64,000 bases of DNA from Syntrophales bacterium (GCA_963662405.2 CAXXKT010000002.1:6578-70577); one strand, 5' to 3'. Shown: positions 11,790-31,844, numbered from the stretch's first letter. The notes: generated by a model from the letters alone, not told the origin. Numbers and translations: made by a program.

Positions 11790-12460
11790 TGCCTCATTAT
11801 CGCGCTCCCGGATCAGCGTATGCTATGAACGAAGATGAAAAGCAAACAATCATTATCGCCTCGGAAAACAAGGGAAAGGTACGAGAACTTAAAGCGCTGC
11901 TTGAGGGAATGGAAGTGGACCTCCGGTCGCTGAGCGACTATCCTGACGCTCCTCATGTCGAGGAGAATGGGCGCACATTTCTTGAGAATGCCTTCATAAA
12001 GGCACGCACGATATCTGACTTTACCGGCATGACGGTCATTGCGGACGATTCCGGGTTGGAGGTTGACGCGCTCGGGGGGAGGCCTGGTATATATTCGGCC
12101 CGATATGCGGGAGATACAGCGACAGACGAAGAAAATATTTGCAAACTCTTATACGAAATGGGATCTGTTCCGGAAGGCAAGAGAGGGGCAGCCTTCCGTT
12201 GTGTGCTGGTTTTGTACCGGACCAACGGGACCTCTGAAACCTTTGAGGGGACATTGAGAGGATCAATTACTCGGGAACCATCGGGTAAAGAAGGATTCGG
12301 TTATGACCCCGTCTTTTTTGTCCCGGAATATATGGTCACCGTTGCCGAACTCGATCCGGCTGTCAAGAACCGGATCAGTCACCGGGGAAAGGCATTTGCA
12401 CAGCTCAAAGACCGTTTGGCCAAGGACCAGGCGGTCGATAAAAACTCAATCGGGGCGTAG
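11789..12460 (+). CDS. rdgB: dITP/XTP pyrophosphatase (RdgB/Ham1)
   Basis: Motifs [55 protein letters not shown] overlap with the rph stop; an alternative ATG lies at 11825. The last 10 nt overlap the tRNA 5' end. Confidence 0.9.
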
Positions 12461-12527
12461 CGCAGCCTGGTAGCGCGCCTGCTTTGGGAGCAGGATGTCG
12501 CAGGTTCAAATCCTGCCGCCCCGACCA
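12451..12527 (+). tRNA. tRNA-Pro (anticodon UGG), CCA encoded
   Basis: Manual cloverleaf: acceptor CGGGGCG/CGCCCCG, D arm GCGC-AGCCTGGTA-GCGC, anticodon arm CCTGC-TTTGGGA-GCAGG (UGG), T arm GCAGG-TTCAAAT-CCTGC, discriminator A plus CCA. Confidence 0.95.
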
Positions 12528-12530
12528 TTT
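12483..12530. repeat. att repeat copy 1 (tRNA-Pro from the anticodon loop to 3 nt past CCA)
   Basis: The 48 bp TTTGGGAGCAGGATGTCGCAGGTTCAAATCCTGCCGCCCCGACCATTT are identical at 21977-22024. The last 30 bp are identical at 31815-31844. Confidence 0.9.
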
Positions 12531-12584
12531 AAATCAAGTACTTATGATATATTCAGGGGAGTCAAAAAGAGATACTTTTATTAC

Positions 12585-12607
12585 CGGACCGTTTCCGGTA
12601 CCATTTT
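12585..12607. repeat. 23-bp direct repeat CGGACCGTTTCCGGTACCATTTT (left copy)
   Basis: Exact copy at 21826-21848; the similarity extends about 7 bp further 5' (TTATTAC vs TTATTCT). It lies ~55 bp inside att copy 1. Confidence 0.85.
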
Positions 12608-12746
12608 AATGAGTGCTTGAAGCACAAAAAAGGCCCCCGATCTCTCAGGAGCTTCAAATCCTTGCAAAAAGATCAAGAATCCATTTCCTTACTAAGCAAC
12701 ATCAACATGCTATCCAAATACGATAAAAAGAAGGGGGCATAAAAAC

Positions 12747-13157
12747 ATGGGATTTTTATCGCGCTTGTTCGGATCAAAAAAGCAAGAACTTATTGTCAAT
12801 ATACCTGGTCCCGGCCTATTTAAGCATGATGTAGTCGGGGAATCAAAATATCAGAAGGAGCTATCCGCAATATGTGGTGGCAAAACAGAGGACGGCCACA
12901 AAAAGGTTGTAACTGCCCTGCTGATACATGAAGACACTAATAAATATGACAACAAAGCCATCCTTGTTGCTATTGATGGCAATCCGGTTGGTTATCTTGA
13001 TAGAGAAAATGCGAGACAATTCAGGAAACTTCTTGCCGATGAAGGCTATCCCGGAGCCGGGGCAACATGTGCCGCCAAAATAGTCGGTGGCTGGCAAAGG
13101 AAAGACGGAGACGAAGGTCATTTCGGTGTCAAGCTTGATCTACCAGTGGTGGAATGA
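12747..13157 (+). CDS. hypothetical protein, HIRAN-like domain (tentative)
   Basis: 136 aa with a good RBS (AAGGGGG). VVGESKYQKEL...ALLIHEDTNKYDNKAILVAIDGNPVGYLDRENA...GHFGVKLDL resembles bacterial HIRAN-domain proteins, judged from memory of the family only. Confidence 0.45.
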   Translation: MGFLSRLFGSKKQELIVNIPGPGLFKHDVVGESKYQKELSAICGGKTEDGHKKVVTALLIHEDTNKYDNKAILVAIDGNPVGYLDRENARQFRKLLADEGYPGAGATCAAKIVGGWQRKDGDEGHFGVKLDLPVVE

Positions 13158-13367
13158 GGGCCGGGTGGTCTGGGTTCTGTTTTGAAAAGGGGGAGCTATG
13201 AAAACAAGCAGACTGATTAAATGTAAAAAACGTGACGGCAGTTATTGTTATTGTTCTTCTGATACTATTTTTTCTAACAGGCGGCTTCGGTCTGATGTAT
13301 TAAGAATATGGGATGGAGCAATTAAAGAAAGGGTATAATTAACAGGCTTGAAAGGAGACCGTGGAAG

Positions 13368-13595
13368 ATGTCGCACACAATCAAAGAACTCCGAGAAACA
13401 AGTGATGAACAACTTATAATTGACCATGATAAAAAAGCAGACAGTACCGATCCGGGTGTGAATTATTACCTCGATGAATTGCAGCGCAGGCAACAAAACA
13501 GACAAACCAAAATCATGTTGTGGCTTACTGTTGTGATAACGATATTAACAGCCGCCAATGTCATTACGGTTTTTGCTTCTCTGGCGTGTCGATAA
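13368..13595 (+). CDS. hypothetical small protein with C-terminal transmembrane helix
   Basis: 75 aa, RBS AAAGGAGA 8 nt upstream. A polar N-terminus is followed by IMLWLTVVITILTAANVITVFASLA. Confidence 0.45.
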   Translation: MSHTIKELRETSDEQLIIDHDKKADSTDPGVNYYLDELQRRQQNRQTKIMLWLTVVITILTAANVITVFASLACR

Positions 13596-13752
13596 ATTCT
13601 CTGACTTCATATCGTCCTGGTTTCCGCTCAAAGCTATTCATTTCCGAGAGCTTTGCTTTCATAACCGCTCTGCCAGTTGACCACATAATCGCCCCGTCCC
13701 CGGTATTCATCCATCTTGAAATTTCGGTGTTCCATATTCCATAATGTTTCAT
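13564..13752 (-). CDS. hypothetical small protein
   Basis: Track ORF 13564..13767; ATG 13752 is preceded by GGAGGA at 7-nt spacing (MKHYGIWNTEISRWMNTGDG...). Confidence 0.35.
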   Translation of the reverse strand: MKHYGIWNTEISRWMNTGDGAIMWSTGRAVMKAKLSEMNSFERKPGRYEVREFIDTPEKQKP

Positions 13753-13786
13753 ATTGCTGTCCTCCATTTTAAGAAAGGATCAAATA

Positions 13787-13975
13787 ATGACCGCACGAAT
13801 AAAAAGTATTGACAACGATCTAATAACCCTTGATGACGGTCACGCATATCGCGCCGAAAGAATGGATATGAATCGCCTATCATCGTGGAACGTTAATGAC
13901 AAGGTTAGAATAGGATATGATTACCTATTCCACTTTAAGCGCGAAAAAAAGGTACACGTCAGGCGCGAACGATAG
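13787..13975 (+). CDS. hypothetical small protein
   Basis: Track ORF 13754..13975; ATG 13787 lies behind AAGAAAGGA (MTARIKSIDNDLITLDDGHAY...). Confidence 0.35.
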   Translation: MTARIKSIDNDLITLDDGHAYRAERMDMNRLSSWNVNDKVRIGYDYLFHFKREKKVHVRRER

Positions 13976-14141
13976 GAACCACGCACGCTACCTCTATAAG
14001 AAGTTTCCCCTCGCAGGCAATCTCTTGCCCCTGGAGATTTCTTTTTTTGAAATCGCGGTCAAGAGGATAAGCATCCTCTATTGATACGACTTCGATACCA
14101 GCCGCTTTAAGATCACTAATTACCTTCTCTATTGTTCCCAT
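13959..14141 (-). CDS. hypothetical small protein
   Basis: 60 aa with a strong RBS (AGGAGGTGAGGT before the ATG). It sits directly downstream of terL on the same strand. Confidence 0.4.
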   Translation of the reverse strand: MGTIEKVISDLKAAGIEVVSIEDAYPLDRDFKKRNLQGQEIACEGKLLIEVACVVPIVRA

Positions 14142-14212
14142 ACCTCACCTCCTGAATTTTTCTTAACTCTACCCCAGGCCGCCGTCTTCGGGAGAGGTCA
14201 ACAATCTTGCGA

Positions 14213-15853
14213 TTAAAAACACATCCCGGCGAGGATCTCCTCTTTCGTCATATTTTCGTATGCTGAAACGAACGCGTCTTCATGTAGCAACAGGCCACCG
14301 GCAAGGGCCATAATTGCCGCGACTGCTGCATCTATCTTCTCTACGGATCGCCGCTTGGAGGGTTTCAGGTTTCCTGCTGCATCCGCTTCCGTGGTCAGAT
14401 TCGATATACACCACCGTAGCACCGGGTCATCGTTGTGACGGAGTTTTCTGGAAAGTATCAGTTTCAAAAGTTCCTTCGTTGGTGCTGACTGATCTTTGTA
14501 GCCCTGCCCGTGTCCGACCATGACCACACTTTCAGATTCAAGTGCTTGTCTCACCGATTCAGAGCCCCATCGGTCAAAGTGAATGGACTGAAGGTCAAAT
14601 TGTGTTTTCAGTTGGAGAATCTTCTCTATGATGAAGTTGTATTCAATCACAGCACCGGGAATCGCTATCAAGTCACCACTGTTAATCCATTGCAGGTAAG
14701 GTTTTCTCCGGTGCTGTCTTGCGGTATCTTCGGGCAGCCAGGACCAGGACAGCAAGTAAAAAAGATCCTCTTCACCGTCAGGAGGGAAACACAAGGAAAA
14801 GGATGTCAAGTCCTGTGTGCTCGATAGGTCAAGGCCACCGTAGCATTTACGGCCCGAAAGGTCAGGGATATCGCCCTTGCAGGCATCCCAATCGGTCATA
14901 GATATGAAGGGTGTAGCCGCTTCTGTCCACTGATTCAAGTGCAGCCTCTTGAATACGGCTTCATATGCAGGGCTTTCCTTTGCCCGTTCACACTCCCGTG
15001 CCAAGTACTCTTTGGAAATCGAAACACCTAAACAGGGATTGACGGCCTCCCAGATTGCCGAATCTGTCCAAGCGGCCCCCGTGGGAGCCTCATAAATCAC
15101 AGGGAAGAAGGCCTTGTCATTAATAACGCCGTCCTGGACACCCTTGGCGTATTGATATTTTTCGTAACATATGCTTGTCTGATCATATCCCGCCGTAGTA
15201 ATGGAAAGCGTCAATGGTTCCCGCCTCGCTCCCGTACTGGTTTGTAAAACGTCGATCAATTCACGGTCGGCGATTGCGTGAAGTTCATCAAATATGACAA
15301 GGTTTGAATTGCTACCATGCTTTGTGTTTGCTTCTGACGATAGAACCCGAAACACGCTGTCACGGTCAGGATATCTGATTTCACTTCTTAAGACTTCGGC
15401 GCGCCTGTCCAAATCCTCATCTTTAAAAATCATCATTTTCGCTGTATCAAAGACTATCCGTGCTTGTTGTCGATCCGCTGCGCAAGCGTAGAGTTGCTGG
15501 CCACGCTCCTCTTGGCAAAACAGAAAAAAGAGCGCAATACCAGAGATTAAAAGGCTCTTTCCGTTCTTCCTCGGTATGAAGATAAAGGCCTCCCGGAATC
15601 GCCTGAGGTGTGTCTTCTCATGCTTCCAGCCGAAAAGGTGGCCGATAATAGCCTCCTGCCACAATTCAAGCACAAAGGGATATAGGGCCTTTTCTCCGTG
15701 GACATGGTGAAGACACTCATGGAAGAAATCAATAGCCTCTTGACCGGCCTCGGCGTCAAGGTAGTAGTCTCCGGCGCTCTGGTACGGGTCGAATCTGACC
15801 GGATACCCCGGATTGAATTTGATCCAATCATTTGAAGAATCTATTTTTTCCAT
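14213..15853 (-). CDS. terL: phage terminase large subunit
   Basis: 546 aa with Terminase_1-type N-terminal ATPase (FIFIPRKNGKSLLISGIALFF, VIFDELHA) and a C-terminal nuclease region. It overlaps the terS stop. Confidence 0.85.
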   Translation of the reverse strand: MEKIDSSNDWIKFNPGYPVRFDPYQSAGDYYLDAEAGQEAIDFFHECLHHVHGEKALYPFVLELWQEAIIGHLFGWKHEKTHLRRFREAFIFIPRKNGKSLLISGIALFFLFCQEERGQQLYACAADRQQARIVFDTAKMMIFKDEDLDRRAEVLRSEIRYPDRDSVFRVLSSEANTKHGSNSNLVIFDELHAIADRELIDVLQTSTGARREPLTLSITTAGYDQTSICYEKYQYAKGVQDGVINDKAFFPVIYEAPTGAAWTDSAIWEAVNPCLGVSISKEYLARECERAKESPAYEAVFKRLHLNQWTEAATPFISMTDWDACKGDIPDLSGRKCYGGLDLSSTQDLTSFSLCFPPDGEEDLFYLLSWSWLPEDTARQHRRKPYLQWINSGDLIAIPGAVIEYNFIIEKILQLKTQFDLQSIHFDRWGSESVRQALESESVVMVGHGQGYKDQSAPTKELLKLILSRKLRHNDDPVLRWCISNLTTEADAAGNLKPSKRRSVEKIDAAVAAIMALAGGLLLHEDAFVSAYENMTKEEILAGMCF

Positions 15854-16199
15854 TGCCGTTTTCCTCTTCTCTTGGTGTTATTTTTACACCTCGGCTGTAT
15901 GGTGACAGTCCAAAGTGAGACAAAAGTTTCAAATAAAGGTCGCTGTAAGCTTTCCACATGGTAAAGGCCGGATGTTTTTTAGTGGTATCATGGAGCCCGT
16001 CAACGGCCAGGCCTTCACGCTCTATCAGCCGGTCAGATACTGTCATCTTATGGTAAACGCGACACAGGGTTTCAAAGGTCTCACGGTCAAGATTGTCCAG
16101 TGAGCCCGACTCTACTAGGCGCGGGCCAACGCTTTTCCATAACCTTTTTCCGTGTTCTCCCAGGTCTGAAGGTGCTTTCCAGAGCTTTGTAATTTTCAT
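15828..16199 (-). CDS. terS: phage terminase small subunit, P27 family
   Basis: 123 aa. ...GKRLWKSVGPRLVESGSLDNLDRETFETLCRVYHKM...KLLSHFGLSPYSRGVKI is characteristic of P27-family small terminases. Confidence 0.75.
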   Translation of the reverse strand: MKITKLWKAPSDLGEHGKRLWKSVGPRLVESGSLDNLDRETFETLCRVYHKMTVSDRLIEREGLAVDGLHDTTKKHPAFTMWKAYSDLYLKLLSHFGLSPYSRGVKITPREEENGNGKNRFFK

Positions 16200-16250
16200 A
16201 ATTTCCTCATTTACCTAAAACCGATTGACCTTCAGCGGTGTGCTTCTGCC

Positions 16251-16634
16251 CTAGCGCCGGTATGACGATCTCGCGCTTTCTGAAGATTTTACCCCCCCCT
16301 TGGCCCCATGCTCAACGTTGTGACAGGCAAGACAAAGGCTTTCCAGGTTATCCATAGCGAAGGGATCGCCACCGGCTTTCACTTCTTGCTTGTGGTGAAC
16401 CATCGTGGCAGGTGTAACCCTTCCCTGATCCATGCACTTCTGACACAAGGGAAACTCTTCCAGGTGCAACCGTCTAACCTTGCGCCATTGCGATGATACA
16501 TAGAGCGGGTCAGGTGTTTTGTTACCTTTCTCTTTCGTGTATCCCTTCAAGTGCTCATCACAATAACCCGAAGCATTACGGGTCAGATTGTGACAACCCT
16601 TCATTTTACAGACTCTGAACGCTCTCTTTGCCAT
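16251..16634 (-). CDS. HNH endonuclease
   Basis: Start moved to MAKRAFRVCK. It has CQKC...VHHKQEVKAGGDPFAMDNLESLCLACHNVEH (HNH with zinc cysteines). The position upstream of terS/terL matches HK97-like cos packaging modules. Confidence 0.85.
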   Translation of the reverse strand: MAKRAFRVCKMKGCHNLTRNASGYCDEHLKGYTKEKGNKTPDPLYVSSQWRKVRRLHLEEFPLCQKCMDQGRVTPATMVHHKQEVKAGGDPFAMDNLESLCLACHNVEHGAKGGVKSSESARSSYRR

Positions 16635-16766
16635 CAATTTTTTCTCCGCTTTATCACAACACACAAACGAGCCAGCCCACAGCAAAACCCATTATGGCCA
16701 TACACATATGAAGAAATATCTCTATTACGTTCATCTCATTATCTCCTCGCATCCCTGTTATTTTGT

Positions 16767-18491
16767 TCACCGTGCCATTTCATCAAACCTTGAATATTCC
16801 CCGTGATAATAAAGCAGACATTCCCCGCCGCTGTTGTACCGGCTCGCCTCAATCCTGACCAAGGTTGCCGGATCATAACTTTCCGTTGCTAATTCCCCGC
16901 CGTTTCCCTTCTTCCTGGCCCGGTGTAAAATTATCAGGTGATCGCAATCCGAAAAGATTGAAGATGAATCTTTCAAATCCATTGCCGTCATGATTGAGTT
17001 GGCCTGAATCTTTCGCGGTTGTGCAATCAGGATGATAGGAATTTCAAGTTCTTCGGCAAGGAACTTGAAGGCTTGAACGGCAAGCCCGATTTCTTGAACC
17101 TGGTTATTGATTGACCGGCAAAGAAAATGAAGATGGTCAAAGCATATCAGCTTCAGACCATAGCGCCGAATTGCCGCTTTCAGTGTTTCCATGATCCCGT
17201 CAAGTGTCGGCTTCTGGTAGCAGTAACCCAGGTAAAAGGGCTTTCCCTTGAAGTCGATCCGCGCCCTTTCGATCTCTGCAAGACCGATCTCTTCTGATTT
17301 GTTATGGCATTGCATGGCCTTCTGAACGATCTTCATCGGTCGCATCTCAAGGCAAAAGAAGAGGGAAGGAATATCTTGAAGGGCGTTATGGGTGATGGTC
17401 TGTAAAGCAAGGGTTGACTTTCCTATCTTCGGGGGTGCGGATAGAACAATCAGTTCACCCGGCATAAAACCCGTTTTGATTATACGGTCAACAGCCCCCC
17501 AGCCGGTTCTAATCCCAGTCGCCTGGTCCGGTCGTTGCGCTTCCTCTCGATACTTTTTCACACCTTCGGCAAAGGTCATGATCCCGGCAACATCAAATTG
17601 ACGCGCTTCATTGACCATCTCGGAAAATTCATTATGACCGCCGCCGGCCCGGAATAGGTCGTTTACGTCCTGGCCATCAGGTAAGGCCACGTTTAAACAG
17701 CGCTCATATCCTAACCTCCGCGCCGCTTCACGGGCTCCCTTCTGTCCCGGTTCATCCTGGTCATAGCAAAGGTATATTTTCTTAACGGCTTGAAGCTGGT
17801 CAATCCATGACGGGTCAAATGATCCAGCCCCTGTGGTAACTCCAACAACGTTTTTTATTCCCTGGTCAATCAAGGTCAATGCGTCAAGTTCGCCCTCAGT
17901 GATATAGATCTCATCCGGGTGTTCCTCTACAACGTCACCGTTAAAAAGGATTGACCGGCAACCCTTAACGCGCCGGAAGGTCTTTTCTGTGGGGGGCAGT
18001 GACCGGCTCTTAATGTTTATCAGCTTGTCTTTTTCGTAGTGGGGTATGGTCAACCATCGGCCCCCGTCTCTGTCGATCTGTAATCCAAGCTTGAAAGCTT
18101 TGGCGGTCTCAATGCTGATCCCCCTGGCCTCTGTGATGTAACTTACGGCGTTCTGGTCGGTCAAAAGGCGCTCATAGGCTTCTGTGGCCTTCTTTTCATC
18201 CGGCTTGATTGAAGGGGCGTCTTTATCCTCGAAAGCCTGCCTGACGGCTCCCTGTGGCTTCTGGTTCATGCGTCTGGTCCCTCGCTGTGGTTGAAAGTCT
18301 CCATAATGTTTTTGCAGGGTGATAAGGTTTCCCCGTTCCTGGCACTTGTGGCAATAGAAAGCGCCTTCATCCGGATCCATGTAAAAATGACTTTTCGGAT
18401 CCCCGCAAAAGGGGCAGGTTTTCAAGACTGCCTGTCCTGATTGAATCCGGTATTCAAGCCCCTTGCTCTGAATATATTCAAGTGCCGTCAT
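16767..18491 (-). CDS. bifunctional DNA primase/helicase (T7 gp4-like)
   Basis: 574 aa: zinc finger CPFCGDPKSHFY...CHKCQERG, Toprim (ITEGELDALTL, CYDQDEPG), DnaB/RepA-like Walker A SAPPKIGKST and Walker B ICFDHLHFL. Confidence 0.85.
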   Translation of the reverse strand: MTALEYIQSKGLEYRIQSGQAVLKTCPFCGDPKSHFYMDPDEGAFYCHKCQERGNLITLQKHYGDFQPQRGTRRMNQKPQGAVRQAFEDKDAPSIKPDEKKATEAYERLLTDQNAVSYITEARGISIETAKAFKLGLQIDRDGGRWLTIPHYEKDKLINIKSRSLPPTEKTFRRVKGCRSILFNGDVVEEHPDEIYITEGELDALTLIDQGIKNVVGVTTGAGSFDPSWIDQLQAVKKIYLCYDQDEPGQKGAREAARRLGYERCLNVALPDGQDVNDLFRAGGGHNEFSEMVNEARQFDVAGIMTFAEGVKKYREEAQRPDQATGIRTGWGAVDRIIKTGFMPGELIVLSAPPKIGKSTLALQTITHNALQDIPSLFFCLEMRPMKIVQKAMQCHNKSEEIGLAEIERARIDFKGKPFYLGYCYQKPTLDGIMETLKAAIRRYGLKLICFDHLHFLCRSINNQVQEIGLAVQAFKFLAEELEIPIILIAQPRKIQANSIMTAMDLKDSSSIFSDCDHLIILHRARKKGNGGELATESYDPATLVRIEASRYNSGGECLLYYHGEYSRFDEMAR

Positions 18492-19255
18492 ATAATCCTC
18501 ATCCCCTGGCTTCTGTAATGTTCATCAAGGGCATGACTCCCTGTTGACTTCATAACTTCCACGCTTGTCATGCTGGTCTCTGGTTTCAGATTTCGGATGA
18601 TTCCCAAAAGGTACTTTTCGCCCTTCTTCTGTTCTGCATATCCCTTTTCAAGATAAGCCCTGGTCCCTGTCATAACCGACTCAACCGGGTATTTATTCCA
18701 TGACTGCAAAATGGACAGCTTCACACTGTCTGCAATTCGGTTTGATTTTCTGGTTGATGATATGGCTTGAAATGCCTGGTTGATGATTTCCTGGTTTGAA
18801 TATCTTTCTTCCAGGGCAGAGATTTCAGAAAGTATTTTTTCAGGGGTTCTTTTCTTCTTATGTTCTTTTGTTCTTGTATGTTGCCCTTTGTTTGCCACTT
18901 GTTTGTCGTTTTGCGTGTCGTTTTCGTTCTCACTGCTCTGGTAAACGCTCCAATTTACAATGGTAATTACCGAAAACTTGTTTGTCGTTTTGCGTGTCAA
19001 ATTTCCGGCCTTTTCCAGAAAATCAAGAATGGTGCGGATTTCCCGGACTGTAAGGCCCGTTTCCTTAGAAGCTACGCGTAATCCGAAGATGAATTGACCC
19101 GGCATAAGGTGGACAACCTGCAAGCCTACAATGGCATCAAATTCTTTATGGGTAGCCTTCATGAGGCAGTAGGTCCAGAAAGCCCAAAGCTTATGATTCT
19201 TGATCCATCCGGCATCAAGGGACTTGCGCCATAGTTTCACATAGCCTTGATTCAT
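18488..19255 (-). CDS. replication initiator-like protein (phage O / DnaD-like winged-helix N-terminus)
   Basis: 255 aa. MNQGYVKLWRKSLDAGWIKNHKLWAFWTYCLMKA... is typical of phage replication-protein N-termini. ATGA overlap with the primase gene. Confidence 0.5.
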   Translation of the reverse strand: MNQGYVKLWRKSLDAGWIKNHKLWAFWTYCLMKATHKEFDAIVGLQVVHLMPGQFIFGLRVASKETGLTVREIRTILDFLEKAGNLTRKTTNKFSVITIVNWSVYQSSENENDTQNDKQVANKGQHTRTKEHKKKRTPEKILSEISALEERYSNQEIINQAFQAISSTRKSNRIADSVKLSILQSWNKYPVESVMTGTRAYLEKGYAEQKKGEKYLLGIIRNLKPETSMTSVEVMKSTGSHALDEHYRSQGMRII

Positions 19256-19464
19256 TTATCCGCCCCCACTGGTAGCTGATACGCCTTCGGATCTTCAAAC
19301 CGGGCATTGAAGAGTGCTGCAATTTCTTCCTCAGTGATCTGGACACGGCCCCTCTTATCTGCCAGTTCAGCGATTAGAAGGAACATGTTCGCGCCCAGAG
19401 GATTCTTCTGGAAAAGACGGTTGTACCGCTTCTTGAATTTCCGGTTCGGCTTGACGTCGATCAT
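19252..19464 (-). CDS. hypothetical protein
   Basis: Start moved to MIDVKPNRKF. It overlaps the downstream gene by 4 nt and is co-oriented within the replication module. Confidence 0.4.
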   Translation of the reverse strand: MIDVKPNRKFKKRYNRLFQKNPLGANMFLLIAELADKRGRVQITEEEIAALFNARFEDPKAYQLPVGADK

Positions 19465-19466
19465 GA

Positions 19467-24595: not shown

Positions 24596-25014
24596 ACGGT
24601 ACCCCCACTATCAGATGACAGATCAAGGGACATTTGCCCCTCAGATATCCACCGGTTTTTAGCAACACGTCTCTTTTTGTCTTTGCTTTTGATATTTCCC
24701 TGACTTCTGGATCTGATCGGATGATCTGAAGATTGCTCAGCATCAAAAAAGTTAGCCTTTGCGGTCTCTCTGCCGGACCGCTTTGGCTTTTCGCATCCAG
24801 AATGCTGGCGACGAAGGAGAGTAGTTTTTTCCTCTTCCGATAGTACACGTGAACCGGGAAAGGCTTGGAGTATTTTATTGATGAGCGGTTGATGTTTTTT
24901 CTTGATTATATCAGCGTAAGTTCTCAGGGGCTGTGCCGACAAATTATATATACGGCTCACCTCTTCACGAACGGGGATTTCATCATTTAACGAAAGATTA
25001 TGCTTTAAAAACAT
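24592..25014 (-). CDS. hypothetical protein (basic C-terminal half)
   Basis: 140 aa with ATGA-type overlap with the Rep gene start. No motif recognised. Confidence 0.45.
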   Translation of the reverse strand: MFLKHNLSLNDEIPVREEVSRIYNLSAQPLRTYADIIKKKHQPLINKILQAFPGSRVLSEEEKTTLLRRQHSGCEKPKRSGRETAKANFFDAEQSSDHPIRSRSQGNIKSKDKKRRVAKNRWISEGQMSLDLSSDSGGTV

Positions 25015-25117
25015 AAAACTCTCCCATGTGCAGTGGGAGAGCCTCTTGACACACCCGATCTAACGGAATATCATTACAAGTGATATTGGGCTGCCGAAAG
25101 GCTCTCATATCGTTACA

Positions 25118-25160
25118 GAGACCAAGCACCGGGACCGGCCAAAGTCAGGTGCTTGGTCTC
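25118..25160. other. perfect 13-bp inverted repeat GAGACCAAGCACC-N17-GGTGCTTGGTCTC
   Basis: Read directly from the sequence. It lies between the RHH gene and the Rep operon. No U-tract follows on either strand, so it is not a classical intrinsic terminator. It is a candidate Rep nick-site hairpin. Confidence 0.5.
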
Positions 25161-25168
25161 ACTCCTGA

Positions 25169-25438
25169 TTATTCTTTAATCTTCAATTCTCCTTCTTCGT
25201 TGAAGGTAATTTTCCCACTGGCAATGCCTGCCCGGATATTCTTTATGAGTTTCTGACCGAATTTAAAGGCAGCAAGCAAACCGATTTTCTCCAACATGAT
25301 TGCATCTTCATATGCTGACTCTAAGAGGTTCCTCATTAGCTGACTCCTGCTGACCCCGATCTTAGTCGCCATTTCATCGAGCTTTGCGACAAATTCAGGT
25401 TCAAGTTGAACGGTATATTGCTCTTTTGTCTTTTTCAT
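25169..25438 (-). CDS. ribbon-helix-helix (CopG/Arc-like) DNA-binding protein
   Basis: 89 aa. The N-terminal YTVQLEPEFVAKLDEMATKIGVSRSQLMRNLLESA fits a beta-strand plus two helices RHH pattern. Confidence 0.6.
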   Translation of the reverse strand: MKKTKEQYTVQLEPEFVAKLDEMATKIGVSRSQLMRNLLESAYEDAIMLEKIGLLAAFKFGQKLIKNIRAGIASGKITFNEEGELKIKE

Positions 25439-25559
25439 ATCTTGCCCCCATTATGATGTGACTTTACATCATAATCATCTCATATATCATTTCCATTGTC
25501 AAAGGTTTTTTTTCTAATGAAATTCAAAAAATGCGGGGAGAGAGCTAATCACACAAAGA

Positions 25560-25689
25560 CTCTCCCCTTACGCCTTGCCGTGATTAGCACGAGCGCCCGA
25601 ACTGTCAAGGGTTCCCTTCGGCTCACTTCGTTCGGCCTTGACAGTCCGGCCTTGGCTCGTGCTTAAAAATAATCAGGCGACGGGGAGAG
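25560..25689. other. ~130-nt imperfect palindrome
   Basis: The left arm CTCTCCCC..CGCC..TGATTAGCACGAGC..GAACTGTCAAGG pairs with CCTTGACAGTCC..GCTCGTGC..TAATCA..GGCG..GGGGAGAG. A third GGGGAGAG at 25535-25542 can alternatively pair with CTCTCCCC at 25560-25567. Confidence 0.6.
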
Positions 25690-25829
25690 GGTAGGGCGAC
25701 ATTCAGGCTCAAGGAAAAGGGTAGAAACTATGTAAATGTTCATTTTGATGGTTCATGTCCACTTATTTGTCGGAATAATTTGGTAGCATAAGTTGTAATC
25801 ACAATATGAAAGCAAAACATTAAATTATC

Positions 25830-25867
25830 TTGACAATACACTGCCATAGAGTTAACAACTAGTTGTT
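25830..25867 (+). promoter_or_regulatory. candidate sigma-70 promoter (TTGACA-17-TAACAA) overlapped by perfect 14-bp palindrome AACAACTAGTTGTT
   Basis: TTGACA at 25830-25835; palindrome at 25854-25867. It lies ~180 bp upstream of the DUF4062 gene start. The -10 element is weak. Confidence 0.3.
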
Positions 25868-26045
25868 TTAAATCTTGATGTAAATTTTCTTAAAGTACCC
25901 AGCTGTAACAATCAGTTGCCCTGAATCAGTACGCTATGCGCGCAGCATCTCATGAATCAGTGAATTGATTTGACCCATTCAGGATAAATCATCCGCAGAG
26001 TGTTATGTCTATTAACGAAAGATATATCTATAAGGTGTGAATTTT

Positions 26046-26390
26046 ATGAAAAGAACGATCTCAGTCTTTATCGCATCTCCAAGTGATCTCGCCAATGAGC
26101 GTCGTTATTTCAAGGAAGCAATTAAACAGTTAAACGTAGGCTTTGGCGATGGTGCAAATGTCGAATTTGTACCTTTGGGATGGGAGGATACCCTGGCATC
26201 AACAGGAAGACGGAACCAGGATGTGATCAATAAAGAAGTAGATGAGTGTGATGTGTTTATTTTGGTAATGTATAGACGGTGGGGCCAAAACGCGCTCGAT
26301 GCAGAACCATATACGTCATACACAGAAGAGGAATTTTACAGAGCCCTTGAACGGTGGAAAAAAGAAGAGTCTCCTGAGATATTTGTTTTT
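26046..26390 (+). pseudogene. 5' fragment of a DUF4062 (TIR-like) domain gene, truncated by IS insertion
   Basis: MKRTISVFIASPSDLANERRYFKEAIKQLN...DECDVFILVMYRRWG...SYTEEEFYRALE...PEIFVF follows the DUF4062 pattern (VFISS..DL..ER / DiFigi.g.RYG / T..E...A / lvF). The ORF then runs into IS sequence. Confidence 0.6.
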
Positions 26391-27442
26391 GGCGATTATA
26401 TACTTGACAAACCCATTTGGGGGTGCTATTCTACTTTCAAATGGAGGCAAACCATGAAAACTATAGGATTTGATGCCCCGTATTTCACGGACGATAAAAA
26501 GGCTAGGCTATATCTTGAAAAAGTAAGATGGCCTAATGGTCCAATTTGTCCCCACTGTGGGAGTAATGAAAAGCATTATTCTCTCAAGAGCAAAGAAGAT
26601 TCTAAGAAACCAGTCCGGGAAGGTGTATGGAAGTGCAAAAAATGTAGGAAGCAATTCAGTGTTACCGTGGGAACGGTCTTTGAGAAAAGCCACATACCAC
26701 TTAACAAATGGCTATTTGCAACGTTTCTTATTTGCTCTTCCAAGAAAGGTGCGAGCGCACATCAACTGCATCGTATGATAGGGGTTACCTATAAAACAGC
26801 GTGGTTTATGTTTCACCGTATTAGATACGCAATGGATCAAAAGCCAAAAGGGAAAATGACTGGTACGGTTGAAGCTGATGAGACCTATGTTGGCGGGAAG
26901 GGGCATGGCAAGCGTGGGCGTGGTGCCGAAAAAAAGACTCCGGTCTTTTCCTTGGTAGAACGTAATGGTTCCGTAAGGTCCATGCCAGTAGAGCGCGTTA
27001 CAAGTGTAAACCTAAAGGCCATTATTAGGGAACATGTTGAAAAAACTGCAACTATAATGACCGATGACTTTCTTTCCTATCGTGGCTTGGGACGTGAATT
27101 CTCGTTGCATCACGTCATTAACCATGGTAATAAAGAATACGTCCGTGGGAATGTACACACCAACACGATTGAGGGGTATTTTAGTATCCTTAAACGCGGG
27201 ATAGTTGGGGTTTATCAGCATGTTGGTAAACAGCATCTTCACAGATACCTTTCTGAATTTGATTTCCGGTACAACGAACGTAAAGTTGATGATGCACAAC
27301 GGAGTGTATTGGCTCTGTGTGGCATTGAAGGGAAAAGACTTATGTACAGGGACTCATCGGCAGAAAGAAGGATTGCAATGTGAGGTCTTTTGATATGACT
27401 GAAATAAAAATACGGGTTTTGTTAAACAAGGGGAAAATCGGT
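26391..27442 (+). mobile_element. IS1595-family insertion sequence (boundaries approximate)
   Basis: Gapped imperfect inverted repeats: GGCGATTATATACTTGACAAACCCATTTGG (from 26391) versus the reverse complement of 27407-27442 (ACCGATTTTCCCCTTGTTTAACAAAACCCGTATTTT). They enclose a single transposase gene. No clear target duplication was found. Confidence 0.5.
26454..27383 (+). CDS. IS1595-family transposase
   Basis: Own RBS GGAGG, then ATG 26454 (MKTIGFDAPYF). N-terminal zinc ribbon CPHCG...CKKCRKQFSVTVGT, then a DDE domain (VEADETYVGG, IMTDDFLSY, HTNTIEGYFSILKRG). Confidence 0.85.
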   Translation: MKTIGFDAPYFTDDKKARLYLEKVRWPNGPICPHCGSNEKHYSLKSKEDSKKPVREGVWKCKKCRKQFSVTVGTVFEKSHIPLNKWLFATFLICSSKKGASAHQLHRMIGVTYKTAWFMFHRIRYAMDQKPKGKMTGTVEADETYVGGKGHGKRGRGAEKKTPVFSLVERNGSVRSMPVERVTSVNLKAIIREHVEKTATIMTDDFLSYRGLGREFSLHHVINHGNKEYVRGNVHTNTIEGYFSILKRGIVGVYQHVGKQHLHRYLSEFDFRYNERKVDDAQRSVLALCGIEGKRLMYRDSSAERRIAM

Positions 27443-28192
27443 GTTCCCCTAGATAAACTTGGAAACATTTCTAGTGAAACGATGAAATTCTTGCGTTTAA
27501 TGACTCGTGATGTGGGAATTTCTTCCTTTGACAAAGGCAAATGGATAGCGAAAAATTTTGAAAATGGTTCTCTTGCTTATGATAGCGTTTATGAGGGTGT
27601 CTATGAGCAGGAACATGTAGAAAAGTTTAATGCTGGGATTGTATATACAACTTCTCGTTTGCAAGAGGATATACCACGCTGCGATTTTGTGAGTTCTGAA
27701 ACCATGTTGCAATATACAAAAATCGGGAATCATATTGATGCAGGAGAAGTAATTGAGTTTGGACTGTACAAAAACGGAACGAGAGTTCCCGGTGAATGGA
27801 AAGAGCTAACAAAAGAAAAGGCGGAACAAATATCCAAGGTTGTTAAAACTTATGTAGAATATATGGGCTCAATATATGGCTCCATTCACGCTTTTAACAA
27901 GGGTGCTAAACCACAATTTATAAGTGTAAGGGATGCCATAACCGGTGATTTGATTCATTGCGAATTTGGGTTAGAGCACTATCAAGATATAATACGAGCC
28001 CTTAAAGGACCAAATTCAACTGTATATATTTCTGGTCGGATTAAAGAAAACCTTGTCACCAAAAAGATTGACTCCATTTCTTTAACAAGAATTAAGGTTG
28101 CTCCTGTATTATCTGATGAAGAATATCACATGTTTTTTGGATGTGCTCCCGATATTGAATCAATAAAGGATGATGATATCTATGGAGACTGA
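27395..28192 (+). CDS. hypothetical 266-aa protein; possibly the displaced 3' part of the DUF4062 gene (from ~27443)
   Basis: Open frame from 27380; the first ATG is 27395, 12 nt after the transposase stop and inside the putative IS right end. No P-loop or other motif was recognised. Its stop overlaps the PIN gene start by 11 nt. Confidence 0.5.
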   Translation: MTEIKIRVLLNKGKIGVPLDKLGNISSETMKFLRLMTRDVGISSFDKGKWIAKNFENGSLAYDSVYEGVYEQEHVEKFNAGIVYTTSRLQEDIPRCDFVSSETMLQYTKIGNHIDAGEVIEFGLYKNGTRVPGEWKELTKEKAEQISKVVKTYVEYMGSIYGSIHAFNKGAKPQFISVRDAITGDLIHCEFGLEHYQDIIRALKGPNSTVYISGRIKENLVTKKIDSISLTRIKVAPVLSDEEYHMFFGCAPDIESIKDDDIYGD

Positions 28193-28739
28193 AAACCGGG
28201 TATACATGGATTCGTGTTGTTTTATTGATATGGCGAAGATGGCAAAAATTACTCATCTCAATAAAAACACACACGATCCAACCGGAAGAACTGAGGATGT
28301 ATGGTACTTGAGGCGTCTGTGTGATGCTGCTAGGGCTGGAGATATCGAGATTATAAGCTCAACGTTGGCAATAGCCGAATGTCTTCATGATGGCAATCGA
28401 GACAAAATAGATGATACAGCAAAGGATTTATTTGAAAAATACCTAACTTCAGGAAGTGTTGTTTTACCTATTGAAGCTGGGTATGATGTGTGTGTTCAAG
28501 CGAGAGATTTATTTTGGAGGCACGGGATTCTTTTGTCGGGTGCAGATCAGGTGCATCTCGCATCAGCAATTGAAACGAATTGCAGGGAGCTCATCACCAC
28601 TGACGAGAAAATACAGACTAGGCAGAAATTTCATGATGCTATTGCGCCAATAGAGAAAATACTTGGAATCACAGTTATTCGCGCTTCGGCTACCACGATA
28701 TTGCCGGGGAAATATAGACAAGTACAAGCAGGCATATGA
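28182..28739 (+). CDS. PIN-domain nuclease
   Basis: METENRVYMDSCCFID (first Asp), LAIAEC (Glu), GADQVHLASAIE (Asp) and LITTDEK (Asp) give the four conserved acidic positions of PIN domains. RBS AAGGA. Confidence 0.7.
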   Translation: METENRVYMDSCCFIDMAKMAKITHLNKNTHDPTGRTEDVWYLRRLCDAARAGDIEIISSTLAIAECLHDGNRDKIDDTAKDLFEKYLTSGSVVLPIEAGYDVCVQARDLFWRHGILLSGADQVHLASAIETNCRELITTDEKIQTRQKFHDAIAPIEKILGITVIRASATTILPGKYRQVQAGI

Positions 28740-28909
28740 ATAAAAGCAAAAAGAATAAAGAAAATAAACCGCTAGAAATTGGTTCGCCAGTAATTGAACG
28801 CGATGAATTTGATGCGTTAATCAAGAAGGTTCTTTCTGTTCCCCCACCCAAGAAATCAGAAAAGAAAAGTAAAAAACAACGTCAAAAGGAGAATAAACAT
28901 GAAGAATGA
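28736..28909 (+). CDS. hypothetical 57-aa lysine-rich protein (below the ORF-track size cut-off)
   Basis: The ATG overlaps the PIN stop (ATGA). Translation: MNKSKKNKENKPLEIGSPVIERDEFDALIKKVLSVPPPKKSEKKSKKQRQKENKHEE. Its stop overlaps the next gene's start. Confidence 0.4.
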   Translation: MNKSKKNKENKPLEIGSPVIERDEFDALIKKVLSVPPPKKSEKKSKKQRQKENKHEE

Positions 28910-29144
28910 AAAACAGACTTCAGAAGAAGTTGCAAAACTTGCAGCGCAAACACTCCAAGACGATAATTCTTCCGCTACCGCTAAAAAGTTAGCTGCTTCT
29001 GTACTGTCACAATCGGGTACTGGAAAACAAACAGGCGCAGAGATAGAAGACCTTGCATCAAAGGTATTACAGAGCGATAAATATAGTGACGACACAAAGT
29101 CACTTGCTGGATCAGCACTTTCACAATCCAACAAAGATAGGTAG
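28899..29144 (+). CDS. hypothetical 81-aa protein with four internal LA-x-x-x-LQ/LSQS repeats
   Basis: Repeats VAKLAAQTLQD / AKKLAASVLSQS / EDLASKVLQSD / KSLAGSALSQS. RBS AAGGAGAA; translationally coupled to the upstream ORF. Confidence 0.5.
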   Translation: MKNEKQTSEEVAKLAAQTLQDDNSSATAKKLAASVLSQSGTGKQTGAEIEDLASKVLQSDKYSDDTKSLAGSALSQSNKDR

Positions 29145-29147
29145 CGA

Positions 29148-29414
29148 CTATCCTTTCTCTATAAGATCTGTAATTTTCTTTACGCTACAAGTTGGTATAT
29201 GAATAATACCTGATGCTTGGATATTGGTTTCTGATGATATATCACCCATGTTCGGAGCAATGGCCTTTACATCTTTACCGTCATAAATCATGAATCCAAC
29301 AGAAACACACGATATTGGATCGCTCTTATGATAGTCACTGAGGTGTTGCCACTCTGGGTATGGCCTCACACTATCAAACCATTCAATCATTACCATTCTA
29401 ACTTTTTTCTTCAT
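29148..29414 (-). CDS. hypothetical protein
   Basis: 88 aa, convergent with the PIN operon (3-nt gap between stops). No motif recognised. Confidence 0.4.
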   Translation of the reverse strand: MKKKVRMVMIEWFDSVRPYPEWQHLSDYHKSDPISCVSVGFMIYDGKDVKAIAPNMGDISSETNIQASGIIHIPTCSVKKITDLIEKG

Positions 29415-29509
29415 ATTTATATTGGGTTTCTAAAGTATATAATCGCCTTGTTTTTTTCAAGCGAGTTGATTCGGCATCAGAAGCAGACCCCGGGCCTCAA
29501 CTAAAAAAA

Positions 29510-31678
29510 GTGATTGATTTTAAAAAACGATTAGAAGATACGAGGCAGATTATTTATCGCTATTTCGACGATAAATCTGGTTTTGTCAAAGAGGTGGATA
29601 GCCATCTTCGTGCTTACGTAAAAGGAGATTTACCTAAAACGCCGTCAAGCAAAGATATAATTGTATTACCCACGGCTGCGATTGAAGAGATTGAAAAAGC
29701 TAAAACCTATGCTGAACAGAAAGCTTTAGAGGCAGAACAAGCTCATGATAATGCAGAAAAAACGCGTATTAAATTAGAGAAAATGCAATTACAAACTGCA
29801 AAGGATGCGGCGGAATTATCAAAAGAGGGGAAAATAGAATATGCACGGGAGAAATTTTCAGAGCTTTTAATAGAGTCAGTTGATTTGAGGATTTTATCTC
29901 TTGCATATGAGTTCTTCAATTGTACAGGTGATTTGGATTCAGCATTTGAAGCTTCGAGAAAGTGGTTAAGCATAAGTGGTCCTGATCAGAAATCCGCTGC
30001 TACAGCAAGTGCCTATGGCAATCTCGGAGTTCTGTATAAGACGCGAGGCGATTTTGAGCGCGCAGAAGAAATGTACCAAAAGTCATTGGTTATCGATGAG
30101 GCACTTGATCGTAAAGAAGGCGTGGCAATCACCTATGGCAACCTCGGTGTCCTGTATCAGATACGAGGTGACCTTGAGCGCGCAGAAGAAATGTACCAAA
30201 AGTCATTGACTATCAATGAGGAGATTGGTCGTAAAGAGGGTATGGCAAATGCCTATGGGAACCTTGGAGTTCTGTATAAGATGCGAGGCGATATTCAGAA
30301 GTCCGAAGAAATGTATCATAAGTCATTGGCTATCGATGAGAAGATTGGTCGCAAAGAGGGTATGGCAAATGCCTATGGGAATCTCGGGATTTTGTATCAG
30401 ATACGAGGTGACCTAGAGCACGCCGAAGAAATGTTTCAAAAGGCATTGACCATCAATGAAACGCTTGGTCGCAAAGAGGGTATGGCAAATAACTATTCTA
30501 GCCTCGGAATCCTCTATATAACGCGAGGTGACATCGAGAGATCCGAAGAAATGCACCAAAAGGCATTGGCCATAGATGACGCGCTCGGTAGCAAAGCCGG
30601 TATGGCAAATGAATATGGCAACCTCGGAATCTTGTATATGAAACGAGGCGATCTTGCGCGAGCCGAAGAAATGCACCAAAGAGCATTGGCCATCAATGAG
30701 GCTCTTGGTCGCAAAGAAGGTATGGCAAATGCCTATGGCAACCTCGGAATCCTGTATAAGACGCGAGGCGACCTTGCGCGAGCCGAAGAAATGTTTCAAA
30801 AGGCATTGACCATCAATGAAACGCTTGGTCGCAAAGAAGGTATGGCAAATGACTATTCAAACCTCGGGATCCTGTATAAGACGCGAGGGAACCTAGAGCA
30901 CGCCGAAGAAATGTACCAAAAGGCATTGACCATATCTGAGGCACTTGGCAGCAAAGAGGGTATGGCAATTGACTATAGCAACCTCGGGATCCTGTATAAG
31001 ACGCGAGGCGACCTAGACCGCGCAGAAGAAATGTACCAAAAAGCATTGGCCATCGATGAAGCGCTTGGTCGTAAAGAGGGCATGGCAAATGAATATGGCA
31101 ATCTCGGGATACTGTATATGGATCGGGGCGACTTAGAACGCGCCGAAGAAATGTACCAAAAGTCATTGGCTATCAATGAGGAGATTGGTCGCAAGGAGGG
31201 TATAGCAAATGCCTATGGAAACCTCGGAATTCTGTATCAGAGGCGAGGTGATCTAGAGCACGCCGAAGAAGTGTTCCAAAAGTCATTGGCTATCAATGAG
31301 GAGATTGGTCGCAAGGAGGGTATAGCAAATGCCTATGGGAACCTCGGGATACTGTATCAGATGCGAGGGAACCTAGAGCACGCCGAAGAAATGCACCAAA
31401 AGTCATTGGCTATCAATGAGGAGATTGGTCGCAAAGAGGGTATGGCAATTGGCTATAGCAACCTCGGGATCCTGTATAAGATGCGAGGGAACCTAGAGCA
31501 CGCCGAAGAAATGTTCCAAAAGTCATTGACTATCAATGAGGAGATTGGTCACAAAGAGGGCATGGCAATTGGCTATAGTAACCTCGGGATCCTGTATAAG
31601 ACACTAGGCGATCTTGAGCGCGCTGAAGAAATGCACCAAAGGTCATCACATCTTTTTACTGAATTGAAAAAATCATAG
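29510..31678 (+). CDS. tetratricopeptide-repeat protein (14 tandem 40-aa TPR_10/12-like units) with unique ~165-aa N-terminal region
   Basis: 722 aa, with the unit xYGNLGILYxxRGDLExAEEMxQKxLAINEExGRKEGMAN repeated 14 times. GTG start as given by the track, and no strong RBS, so the start is uncertain. Confidence 0.8.
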   Translation: MIDFKKRLEDTRQIIYRYFDDKSGFVKEVDSHLRAYVKGDLPKTPSSKDIIVLPTAAIEEIEKAKTYAEQKALEAEQAHDNAEKTRIKLEKMQLQTAKDAAELSKEGKIEYAREKFSELLIESVDLRILSLAYEFFNCTGDLDSAFEASRKWLSISGPDQKSAATASAYGNLGVLYKTRGDFERAEEMYQKSLVIDEALDRKEGVAITYGNLGVLYQIRGDLERAEEMYQKSLTINEEIGRKEGMANAYGNLGVLYKMRGDIQKSEEMYHKSLAIDEKIGRKEGMANAYGNLGILYQIRGDLEHAEEMFQKALTINETLGRKEGMANNYSSLGILYITRGDIERSEEMHQKALAIDDALGSKAGMANEYGNLGILYMKRGDLARAEEMHQRALAINEALGRKEGMANAYGNLGILYKTRGDLARAEEMFQKALTINETLGRKEGMANDYSNLGILYKTRGNLEHAEEMYQKALTISEALGSKEGMAIDYSNLGILYKTRGDLDRAEEMYQKALAIDEALGRKEGMANEYGNLGILYMDRGDLERAEEMYQKSLAINEEIGRKEGIANAYGNLGILYQRRGDLEHAEEVFQKSLAINEEIGRKEGIANAYGNLGILYQMRGNLEHAEEMHQKSLAINEEIGRKEGMAIGYSNLGILYKMRGNLEHAEEMFQKSLTINEEIGHKEGMAIGYSNLGILYKTLGDLERAEEMHQRSSHLFTELKKS
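30011..31675 (+). repeat. tandem 120-bp coding repeat array (about 13.9 units)
   Basis: The period is exactly 120 bp (unit starts 30011, 30131 ... 31571). Several non-adjacent units are nearly identical at the DNA level, e.g. 30421-30490 vs 30781-30850 and 31141-31215 vs 31261-31335. Confidence 0.9.
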
Positions 31679-31748
31679 CACTAAAAGAACATACATTTAG
31701 ACATTGTTCTATTTCAGACAAAAGATGTCAGCACCCTGCCAAGTATAA

Positions 31749-31769
31749 AGTGGTGCAAAAGTGGTGCAA
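31749..31769 (+). repeat. two tandem AGTGGTGCAA motifs (candidate integrase arm-type sites)
   Basis: AGTGGTGCAA-A-AGTGGTGCAA, 45-65 bp left of att copy 3. The same 10-mer occurs at 22071-22080. Confidence 0.5.
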
Positions 31770-31814
31770 CCACCTTGTAAGTAGTTGATATTATTGGCTG
31801 TCGTCAGGTTCAAA

Positions 31815-31844
31815 TCCTGCCGCCCCGACCATTTTTATATTGTA
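31815..31844. repeat. att repeat copy 3 (last 30 bp of the tRNA-Pro locus; degenerate further 5')
   Basis: CAGGTTCAAATCCTGCCGCCCCGACCATTT is identical to the tRNA end. 31801-31814 (GGCTGTCGT) resembles GGATGTCG with one mismatch and one insertion. The 3' flank TTATATT is shared with copy 2. Confidence 0.85.

Follow-up and report, generated by a model that had tools for sequence, protein, structure and literature searches.

Two unrelated integrative elements in tandem at one tRNA-Pro(UGG) gene of a Syntrophales bacterium

A 64,000-nt stretch of the genome of a Syntrophales bacterium (G000:C2:6578-70577, hereinafter the window; the genome, G000, is assembled in 3 contigs totaling 3.8 Mb) contains a single tRNA gene called by ARAGORN, tRNA-Pro(UGG), the 3′ part of which recurs twice further downstream. 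The questions raised by this locus are whether the DNA between these copies is one island or more than one, how it came to lie there, and whether the order of arrival can be recovered. The original prediction, made from the sequence of the window, held that two unrelated integrative elements are stacked at this gene. The present analysis agrees: two independent integrative elements, denoted E1 (9.4 kb, interval 12531-21976) and E2 (9.8 kb, interval 22025-31804), very probably reside in tandem at tRNA-Pro(UGG), where a separate tyrosine integrase inserted each of them, in an order that the sequence does not disclose.

The 48-nt segment that includes the 3′ part of the tRNA gene and the next 3 nt (12483-12530) is repeated exactly at 21977-22024, as originally reported, and was recovered by exact-match extension. 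The third copy, 30 nt long, is indeed identical to 12501-12530, but it occupies 31805-31834, the position first given for it, 31815-31844, being 10 nt too far to the right. Copies 2 and 3 run on as TTATATT and copy 1 as AAATCAA, again in agreement with the prediction, and copies 2 and 3 have 37 nt in common (21995-22031 and 31805-31841). The 27-nt core of the repeat occurs 3 times in the window and not once in 100 shuffles. Both intervals are, as had been noticed, richer in AT than their surroundings (GC content of 0.466 in E1 and 0.421 in E2, vs 0.513 and 0.521 in the flanks), and each encodes a distinct tyrosine integrase, the BLASTP comparison of the two being not significant (E 0.3).

The empty tRNA-Pro/pck junction that was proposed as a check is present in a genome of the same genus, G007, in which the upstream genes also match. 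When the two flanks of the window were joined computationally, they proved colinear with G007 across the tRNA, the intergenic stretch and the start of the pck gene at 31999, and therefore the 19.3 kb between copies 1 and 3 is extra, inserted DNA. Each of the two element types is also found alone at tRNA-Pro. An E2-type element of 6.6 kb with a single-frame integrase of 405 amino acids (aa) is bounded in G008 by a fragment that extends from the T-arm onward, and another, with a single-frame integrase of 413 aa, is found in G005, on a contig that stops before the far end; an E1-type element of 9.1 kb is bounded in G018 by a fragment that extends from the anticodon loop onward. The tRNA-Pro of G209 is associated with an E1-type packaging module (large terminase (TerL), HNH endonuclease, capsid, portal), on a contig that ends before any integrase or fragment. 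It is the empty site, together with the solitary occurrence of each type bounded by its own tRNA fragment, that upholds the claim of two unrelated elements accreted at one tRNA. In terms of the Islander definition of a tandem array, the locus displays an intact tRNA gene followed by direct 3′ fragments, an integrase and a fragment for each member, and an empty site in a relative; the integrase of E1 is intact, whereas that of E2 is present but frameshifted.

The identity block of E1 begins with the first anticodon-loop base (12483) and that of E2 within the T-stem (12501); because these starting points differ, the two integrases appear to cut one tRNA gene at different places. Under the proposed mechanism, the P4-type integrase of E1 would cross over at the anticodon loop, leaving a 48-nt repeat, and the integrase of E2 would cross over in the T-arm, leaving a repeat of 30-37 nt, with each insertion rebuilding the 3′ end of the tRNA from element-borne sequence and displacing the old end. 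The left and right attachment sites (attL and attR) of the G018 element differ within the T-stem, which places the E1-type crossover 5′ of the T-stem, and the E2-type fragments in G008, G017, G057 and G239 all begin at the T-arm. The two blocks match the two classes of attP subsites, anticodon-centred and T-stem/junction, that are tabulated by Islander (PMC4383910).

The prediction further took the TTATATT flank shared by copies 2 and 3 as a sign that E1 arrived last. This argument fails: when both histories are written out, they yield an identical final sequence. If E2 came first, the site would read tRNA-E2-30-nt fragment, and subsequent entry of E1, for which the intact tRNA would offer the sole complete anticodon stem-loop, would produce tRNA-E1-48-nt fragment-E2-30-nt fragment. 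If E1 came first, the tRNA, E1 and the 48-nt fragment would be followed by the native flank, and integration of E2 into the T-arm of that fragment would produce exactly the sequence seen, with TTATATT behind both copy 2 and copy 3; had E2 chosen the T-arm of the tRNA instead, it would be the proximal element. The identity block of E2 includes only the segment from the T-arm to the flank, which the intact tRNA and the 48-nt fragment displaced by E1 both contain. The flank is uninformative with regard to order because the sequence after copy 2 is the left end of E2 itself, homologous to the sequence that follows the tRNA in G005, where the E2-type element is alone. The sequence does not tell which of the two elements arrived first. 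The topology weakly favours E2 first, a history that forces the observed layout, whereas the reverse history requires E2 to pick the fragment over the tRNA; the decay of E2 and its lower GC content point, if anywhere, in opposite directions.

Tandem stacking at tRNA genes is already well documented. Islander lists 125 tandem arrays of two or more members among 3,919 islands (PMC4383910), and integrative elements of streptococci that are conjugative (ICEs) or mobilizable (IMEs) accrete in tandem through the attL or attR of a resident, often involving integrases that are unrelated and partners that have decayed (PMC5357655). The present locus resembles these arrays (those of Islander, ICESt1/CIME, and the streptococcal IMEs) in that an intact tRNA gene is followed by direct 3′ fragments with an unrelated integrase in each interval, and in that an incoming element uses the attL or attR of the resident (PMC4383910; PMC5357655). 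It differs in that two sublocations of one tRNA, the anticodon loop and the T-arm, are used, which constrains the possible layouts such that the user of the anticodon loop must adjoin the intact gene, and in that the host belongs to an uncultured-type lineage of anaerobes (the homologues of the E2 replication protein are named Syntrophales, Smithella or Deltaproteobacteria). The tRNA-Pro case is unusually cleanly resolved, with an empty site, singly occupied relatives for each type and, in another genus, a second stack, and it carries a caution, namely that flanks shared between att copies do not reveal the order of insertion. The more unusual pieces are the complete terminase set of E1, which comes without a capsid, and the E2-type family, which is unmatched by Pfam and NCBIfam.

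The second stack came to light when the core was searched for in 38 genomes of the family. The core is present in 28 of these; 8 of the 38 contain at least two copies within two mismatches (G018, the own tRNA of which differs in the T-arm, is a ninth), and three copies on one contig are found in G000 and G239 only. In G239, a member of another genus, tRNA-Pro is followed by an E1-type element, a 48-nt copy that continues as TTTTTATATT, an E2-type element and a T-arm copy. The E1-type element of G239 encodes an integrase and an AlpA protein that are respectively 87% and 79% identical to those of E1, with different cargo that includes neither TerL nor primase; the E2-type element encodes an intact integrase of 418 aa (78% identical) and a replication initiator (Rep) of the G008 type that is 33% identical to the E2 Rep. 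In G057, which belongs to another family, an E1-type element is followed 577 bp later by a third fragment from the T-arm onward, the relic of a similar stack. At the G239 locus (L053, G239:C160:4500-23500), an 18-aa remnant of the C-terminus of an E2-type integrase is located at 16838-16892, approximately 60 nt past the third att copy; the G239 array formerly had at least one further member.

Recurrence of the stack bears on a different explanation, under which the array is a composite that moves as one unit, an E2-type integrase recombining copy 1 with copy 3 and E1 traveling as a passenger. The same E1-type-proximal, E2-type-distal arrangement in G239, the third fragment in G057 and the presence of the E2 core inside all three att copies are in its favour, and so is a single high-scoring segment pair (HSP) between G000 and G239 of 2.7 kb and 79% identity that runs across the E1 integrase gene, copy 2 and the E2 integrase gene, the adjacent HSP, with neighbouring core sequence, reaching 73% despite the identical tRNA. 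However, site-specific junctions are deterministic, such that identical junctions arise independently, and the continuous HSP was for this reason rejected as proof of common descent. Moreover, the cargo and replication modules of G000 and G239 are wholly different, which argues for mosaic evolution, the divergence of the two integrases is unequal (87% vs 78% aa identity), both element types occur alone, and the E2 integrase in the window is broken. A composite is accordingly improbable. A looser version, in which the two types form a recurrent partnership with an E2-type integrase that could excise the whole array via copies 1 and 3, is decidedly doubtful; if true, it would mean that a rolling-circle element carries a satellite-like island along from one genus to another, and it would explain the homologous back-to-back integrase block in G239 and the relic in G057. 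Hardly credible is the notion of a single island that contains an att relic, or of repeats that are assembly artefacts, and no observation spoke for it: each half has its own integrase type, arm repeats and length of identity block, G008 and G018 have single-element loci, as do G005 and G209 as far as these were read, and repeats of 30-48 nt with unique flanks are unlikely misjoins in a 3-contig assembly.

A more serious alternative, although still an unlikely one, is that both elements are fixed relics, E1 being what a deletion has left of a capsid-forming satellite, or the stump of a prophage, with its ends retained but its transfer lost, and the whole array a fossil instead of a site of ongoing accretion. 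In the closest E1-type relatives, those of G057 and G209, the interval from TerL to the tRNA contains protease-capsid and portal genes, and a 1.7-kb stretch of small open reading frames (ORFs) occupies exactly this place in E1; no PF04860 portal was found in the genome, and E2 is demonstrably broken. Conversely, the integrase, AlpA, initiator, primase-helicase, HNH, small terminase (TerS) and TerL of E1 are all full length, its att copies are exact, its arm repeats are retained at 93% identity, and a resident prophage is a possible helper. A domain search of 12531-14212 detected no ORFs for capsid, protease, portal or connector proteins, and a tblastn search of the same interval detected no traces of the capsid or portal genes that the relatives possess. 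Several considerations weigh against the reading adopted here: the frameshift in E2 could in principle be an assembly error, although it is located outside any long homopolymer; E1, without the capsid and portal genes of its relatives, could have arisen by deletion and have ceased to spread; and the function of the arm-type sites is deduced from position and conservation alone. Two independent elements with unequal fates remain the preferred explanation. E1 is probably still excisable because all its genes are intact and putative arm-type sites flank both att copies, whereas E2 is decaying and probably stuck in place, given the 1-nt deletion in its integrase gene, the cargo gene split by an insertion sequence (IS) and the lack of another intact integrase of this type in the genome. 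The features of the locus are listed in Table 1.

Table 1. Coordinates of features at the tRNA-Pro(UGG) locus, counted from the first nucleotide of the window
Feature	Position	Strand	Remarks
tRNA-Pro(UGG), intact	12451-12527	+	ARAGORN; anticodon loop 12483-12489, T-stem/loop 12500-12516, CCA 12525-12527
att copy 1, attL of E1	12483-12530	+	48-nt identity block from first anticodon-loop base
E1 P′ arm, putative tandem arm-type sites (CGGACCGTTT / CCGGTACCATTT)	12578-12607	+	Repeats at 21819-21848, 93%
136-aa ORF	12747-13157	+	Weak HIRAN-like match below Pfam cut-off; lies among small ORFs that span 1.7 kb
E1 large terminase, full length	14213-15853	-	ATPase and nuclease domains
E1 small terminase	15828-16199	-	Terminase_4
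E1 HNH endonuclease	16251-16685	-
E1 primase-helicase	16767-18491	-	CHC2 zinc finger, Toprim, DnaB_C; 83% identical to copy in tmRNA-gene island
E1 DnaD/O-like initiator	18488-19255	-
E1 AlpA-type regulator/excisionase	19467-19745	-
E1 277-aa protein, no assigned function	19789-20622	-	Kept beside integrase in E1-type relatives, 27-37% identity
E1 P4-type tyrosine integrase, intact	20564-21790	-	408 aa; Arm-DNA-bind_3, Phage_int_M, Phage_integrase
E1 P arm, second copy of putative arm-type pair	21819-21848	+
E2 tyrosine integrase pseudogene	21915-23251	-	Two frames; 1-nt deletion near 22464 vs three intact homologues
att copy 2, attR of E1 and attL of E2	21977-22031	+	attR of E1 21977-22024 (48 nt); attL of E2 21995-22031 (37 nt)
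E2 left putative arm-type motif AGTGGTGCAA	22071-22080	+
E2 predicted rolling-circle replication initiator, Rep_trans fold	23405-24595	-	396 aa, full length
E2 140-aa basic protein	24592-25014	-	Similar-sized 133-aa ORF at same position in related locus; likeness is of size and position
E2 ribbon-helix-helix (RHH; CopG-type) regulator	25169-25438	-
Non-coding stretch	25585-25722	.	86% identical to matching place in G239 E2-type element
E2 DUF4062-TPR (tetratricopeptide repeat) cargo gene, 5′ part	26046-26390	+	115 codons, DUF4062 domain
IS1595-family element	26391-29447	+	3,057 bp; 25-nt inverted repeats, 23/25 matching
IS1595 transposase	26454-27383		Zn ribbon and DDE_Tnp_IS1595, NCBIfam E 3e-66
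E2 DUF4062-TPR cargo gene, 3′ part	29456-31678	+	Linker and ~14 TPR units from 120-bp repeats
E2 right putative arm-type motif, two tandem AGTGGTGCAA	31749-31769	+	Copies at 31749 and 31760
att copy 3, attR of E2	31805-31841	+	Identity from T-stem; imperfect homology ~8 nt further upstream
PEPCK (phosphoenolpyruvate carboxykinase)-like gene, chromosomal right flank	31999-33672	+	Directly after tRNA-Pro in G007

Judged by its gene content, E1 appears to be a phage-satellite-like island that combines the integration and packaging logic of a capsid-forming phage-inducible chromosomal island (cf-PICI) while falling outside the definition of that group. With PICIs and cf-PICIs it shares an integrase, AlpA, an initiator with a primase-helicase and an HNH-TerS-TerL module within approximately 9.4 kb at a tRNA gene, and the G057 and G209 elements at tRNA-Pro are cf-PICI-like in their HNH, TerL, protease-capsid and portal genes. 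Unlike cf-PICIs, which have their own capsid, protease, portal and connectors, E1 has none of these. It also differs from classical PICIs in carrying a full TerL; the latter are not known to have more than TerS or a redirecting factor. No PF03354 TerL other than that of E1 is present in the genome. The closest matches to it among the genome contigs are a partial one of 59% identity on a 3-kb contig and one of 28%; IMG/VR contributes a single match at 42%, and identity does not exceed 42% in 300 genomes of the order. No second copy of the exact architecture of E1 was found in the genome contigs, IMG/VR or these 300 genomes.

All the named genes of E1, from the integrase to TerL, are on the minus strand, with a 90-aa ORF between AlpA and the DnaD/O-like initiator, and the 1.7-kb stretch of small ORFs takes the position of the portal and capsid genes of related elements. 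The integrase contains the domains PF13356 (Arm-DNA-bind_3; E 1.4e-23), PF22022 and PF00589, the match to the latter spanning positions 3-167 of 172, and over its full length shows 54-87% identity with the E1-type integrases encoded at tRNA-Pro in G018, G057 and G239; it lies at the tRNA-distal end of the element, as it does in G018 and G057. Two copies of a 30-nt repeat (93%) lie inside E1, one at 48 nt from attL and the other at 129 nt from attR; in the E1-type relatives, both homologous positions are taken by another tandem pair of decamers, GGGGTACAAA x2. We infer that these terminal repeats are arm-type sites, P and P′, and that they vary in concert with the arm-binding domain. A hairpin at 12582-12600 was considered as a terminator of the tRNA gene and rejected, as it recurs upstream of attR and the relatives keep the other decamer pair at both positions. 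Within the initiator gene, two exact 23-nt direct repeats (18897-18919 and 18976-18998), 79 bp apart, mark a likely origin of replication. These are adjoined by a run of GTTCTTTT x3.8 (18846-18998 in all), an iteron-like arrangement comparable to initiator-embedded origins.

Two further satellite-like islands in the genome, one at the tmRNA gene and the other at tRNA-Cys, share replication genes with E1 at 83-88% identity. The island at the tmRNA gene (L023, G000:C1:311000-330999, ~11300-18800) has its integrase directly downstream of ssrA, a primase-helicase 83% and a DnaD-like initiator 50% identical to those of E1, and no packaging genes seen. The third satellite-like island (L024, G000:C1:2436000-2455999, ~2198-10500), located beside tRNA-Gly and tRNA-Cys, encodes an integrase, a 437-aa HK97-type capsid protein, a TerS-like protein, a DnaB_C helicase, a DnaD-like initiator, the N-terminus of which is 88% identical to that of E1, and an HTH_17 protein; with a capsid and without TerL or portal, it complements the terminase-only set of E1. 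A tailed prophage at G000:C1:2360614-2370894, with a lambda-type portal (PF05136, E 3e-76) and a tape measure protein (PF10145, E 5e-38), is a possible helper candidate for the satellite-like islands.

E2 is a small plasmid-like integrative element, the core of which consists of the RHH regulator, the basic protein, the predicted Rep_trans-fold initiator and the zinc-ribbon integrase. In the integrase pseudogene, the CxxC...CPxH zinc-ribbon N-terminus, which is conserved among the homologues, shares the first frame with the core-binding domain and the first catalytic Arg; R-H-x-x-R and the Tyr are in the second frame. The 1-nt gap emerged from alignment with the single-frame homologues of G239 (78% identical), G008 and G005, and a programmed frameshift was rejected because the shift is not conserved in these homologues. 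The second frame has no stop before att copy 2 and continues through the tRNA fragment into the end of E1 (21915-22100, minus strand); the intact E2-type integrases of G008 and G005 terminate before the tRNA. There are exactly 3 copies of AGTGGTGCAA in the window, all within approximately 60 nt of the two att copies of E2.

No other intact E2-type integrase is encoded in the genome, the only additional sequence of this type being a 62-aa C-terminal fragment beside tRNA-His, and for this reason the E2 integrase is not complementable in trans. This remnant (L025, G000:C1:2680000-2695000, ~7296-7650) is 56% identical, lies approximately 100 bp after tRNA-His(GUG), and is the scar of another E2-type element. 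A module with the gene order of E2, small ORFs followed by Rep and integrase (in E2, RHH, basic protein, Rep and integrase), is found beside tRNA-His and tRNA-Thr in other assemblies as well, with the 3′ end of the integrase gene facing the 3′ end of the tRNA, as in E2.

The Rep of E2 has no match in Pfam even at E 5, the PF02486 model included, none in NCBIfam and none among the sequences of the Protein Data Bank (phmmer and profile searches), and PHROGs returned just a generic match to endonuclease or replication initiation. Its 407 homologues at E <= 1e-5, none of which is named by function, come from metagenome-assembled genomes labeled Syntrophales, Smithella or 'Deltaproteobacteria'. Since the sequence searches failed, the protein was named by fold: an AlphaFold model (pLDDT 79) matches chains A-C of the rolling-circle replication initiator of Geobacillus, 4cij, with Foldseek E values of 2e-11 to 6e-11 and TM scores of 0.56-0.57 normalised on the target, and suggests a Rep_trans-fold rolling-circle initiator. 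Among 23 homologues, R195, Y197, K199 and E202, which make up an R-x-Y-x-K-x-x-E stretch, are invariant; the stretch around Y197 may correspond to the active-site Tyr motif of RepD and RepC. The non-coding stretch at 25585-25722 is a candidate origin or regulatory region.

In its predicted 4cij-like fold, and perhaps in its R-x-Y-x-K-x-x-E stretch, the E2 Rep is similar to the Rep_trans proteins (RepC and RepD, pT181-type), MobT and the initiators of elements akin to actinomycete integrative and conjugative elements (AICEs). Unlike these, it is unrecognised by Pfam and NCBIfam, has a helical C-terminal extension of approximately 110 aa, and has no N-terminal helix-turn-helix identified in the model. 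E2 resembles IMEs in the pairing of Rep with a tyrosine integrase (PMC5357655), the E2-type integrase being broken here and intact in G239, G008 and G005, and differs from IMEs, ICEs and AICEs in having no conjugation or oriT genes, although oriT was not specifically tested for. Its host is of a deltaproteobacterial-type lineage, rather than among the Firmicutes or Actinobacteria that host the Rep_trans, IME and AICE systems. The E2 type would be a large family of small integrative rolling-circle elements without a Pfam or NCBIfam match in anaerobic lineages of deltaproteobacterial type.

The expectation in the original prediction that defence cargo would be concentrated at such an accretion site is thinly borne out: there is one candidate, the DUF4062-TPR gene of E2, the N-terminal piece of which matches the PADLOC candidate PDC-S60, yet this gene is inactivated by the IS1595-family element. 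In an alignment with one homologue, the two pieces of the cargo gene correspond to residues 1-115 and to those from 116 on, contiguous at 115/116, and all 51 homologues of the linker past the IS contain DUF4062. These abutting pieces and linker homologues, together with the 23/25 inverted repeat and the perfect 8-bp target duplication TTGTTTTT (26383-26390 and 29448-29455), place the right end of the IS at 29447. An end at 27442, which would give an element of 26391-27442 and join DUF4062 to a 270-aa ORF, was rejected, as there is no target duplication at that point. An IS1595 element with a defined boundary that splits a candidate defence gene is a by-product of the analysis. Its zinc-ribbon DDE_Tnp_IS1595 transposase, terminal inverted repeats and 8-bp target duplication are those of the IS1595 family; particular to this element are its occurrence as a single copy in the genome and its passengers, a PIN gene and ORFs without assigned function. 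These passengers encode a 270-aa product, the PIN protein of 189 aa, and products of 57 aa and 81 aa, plus an 88-aa product on the minus strand.

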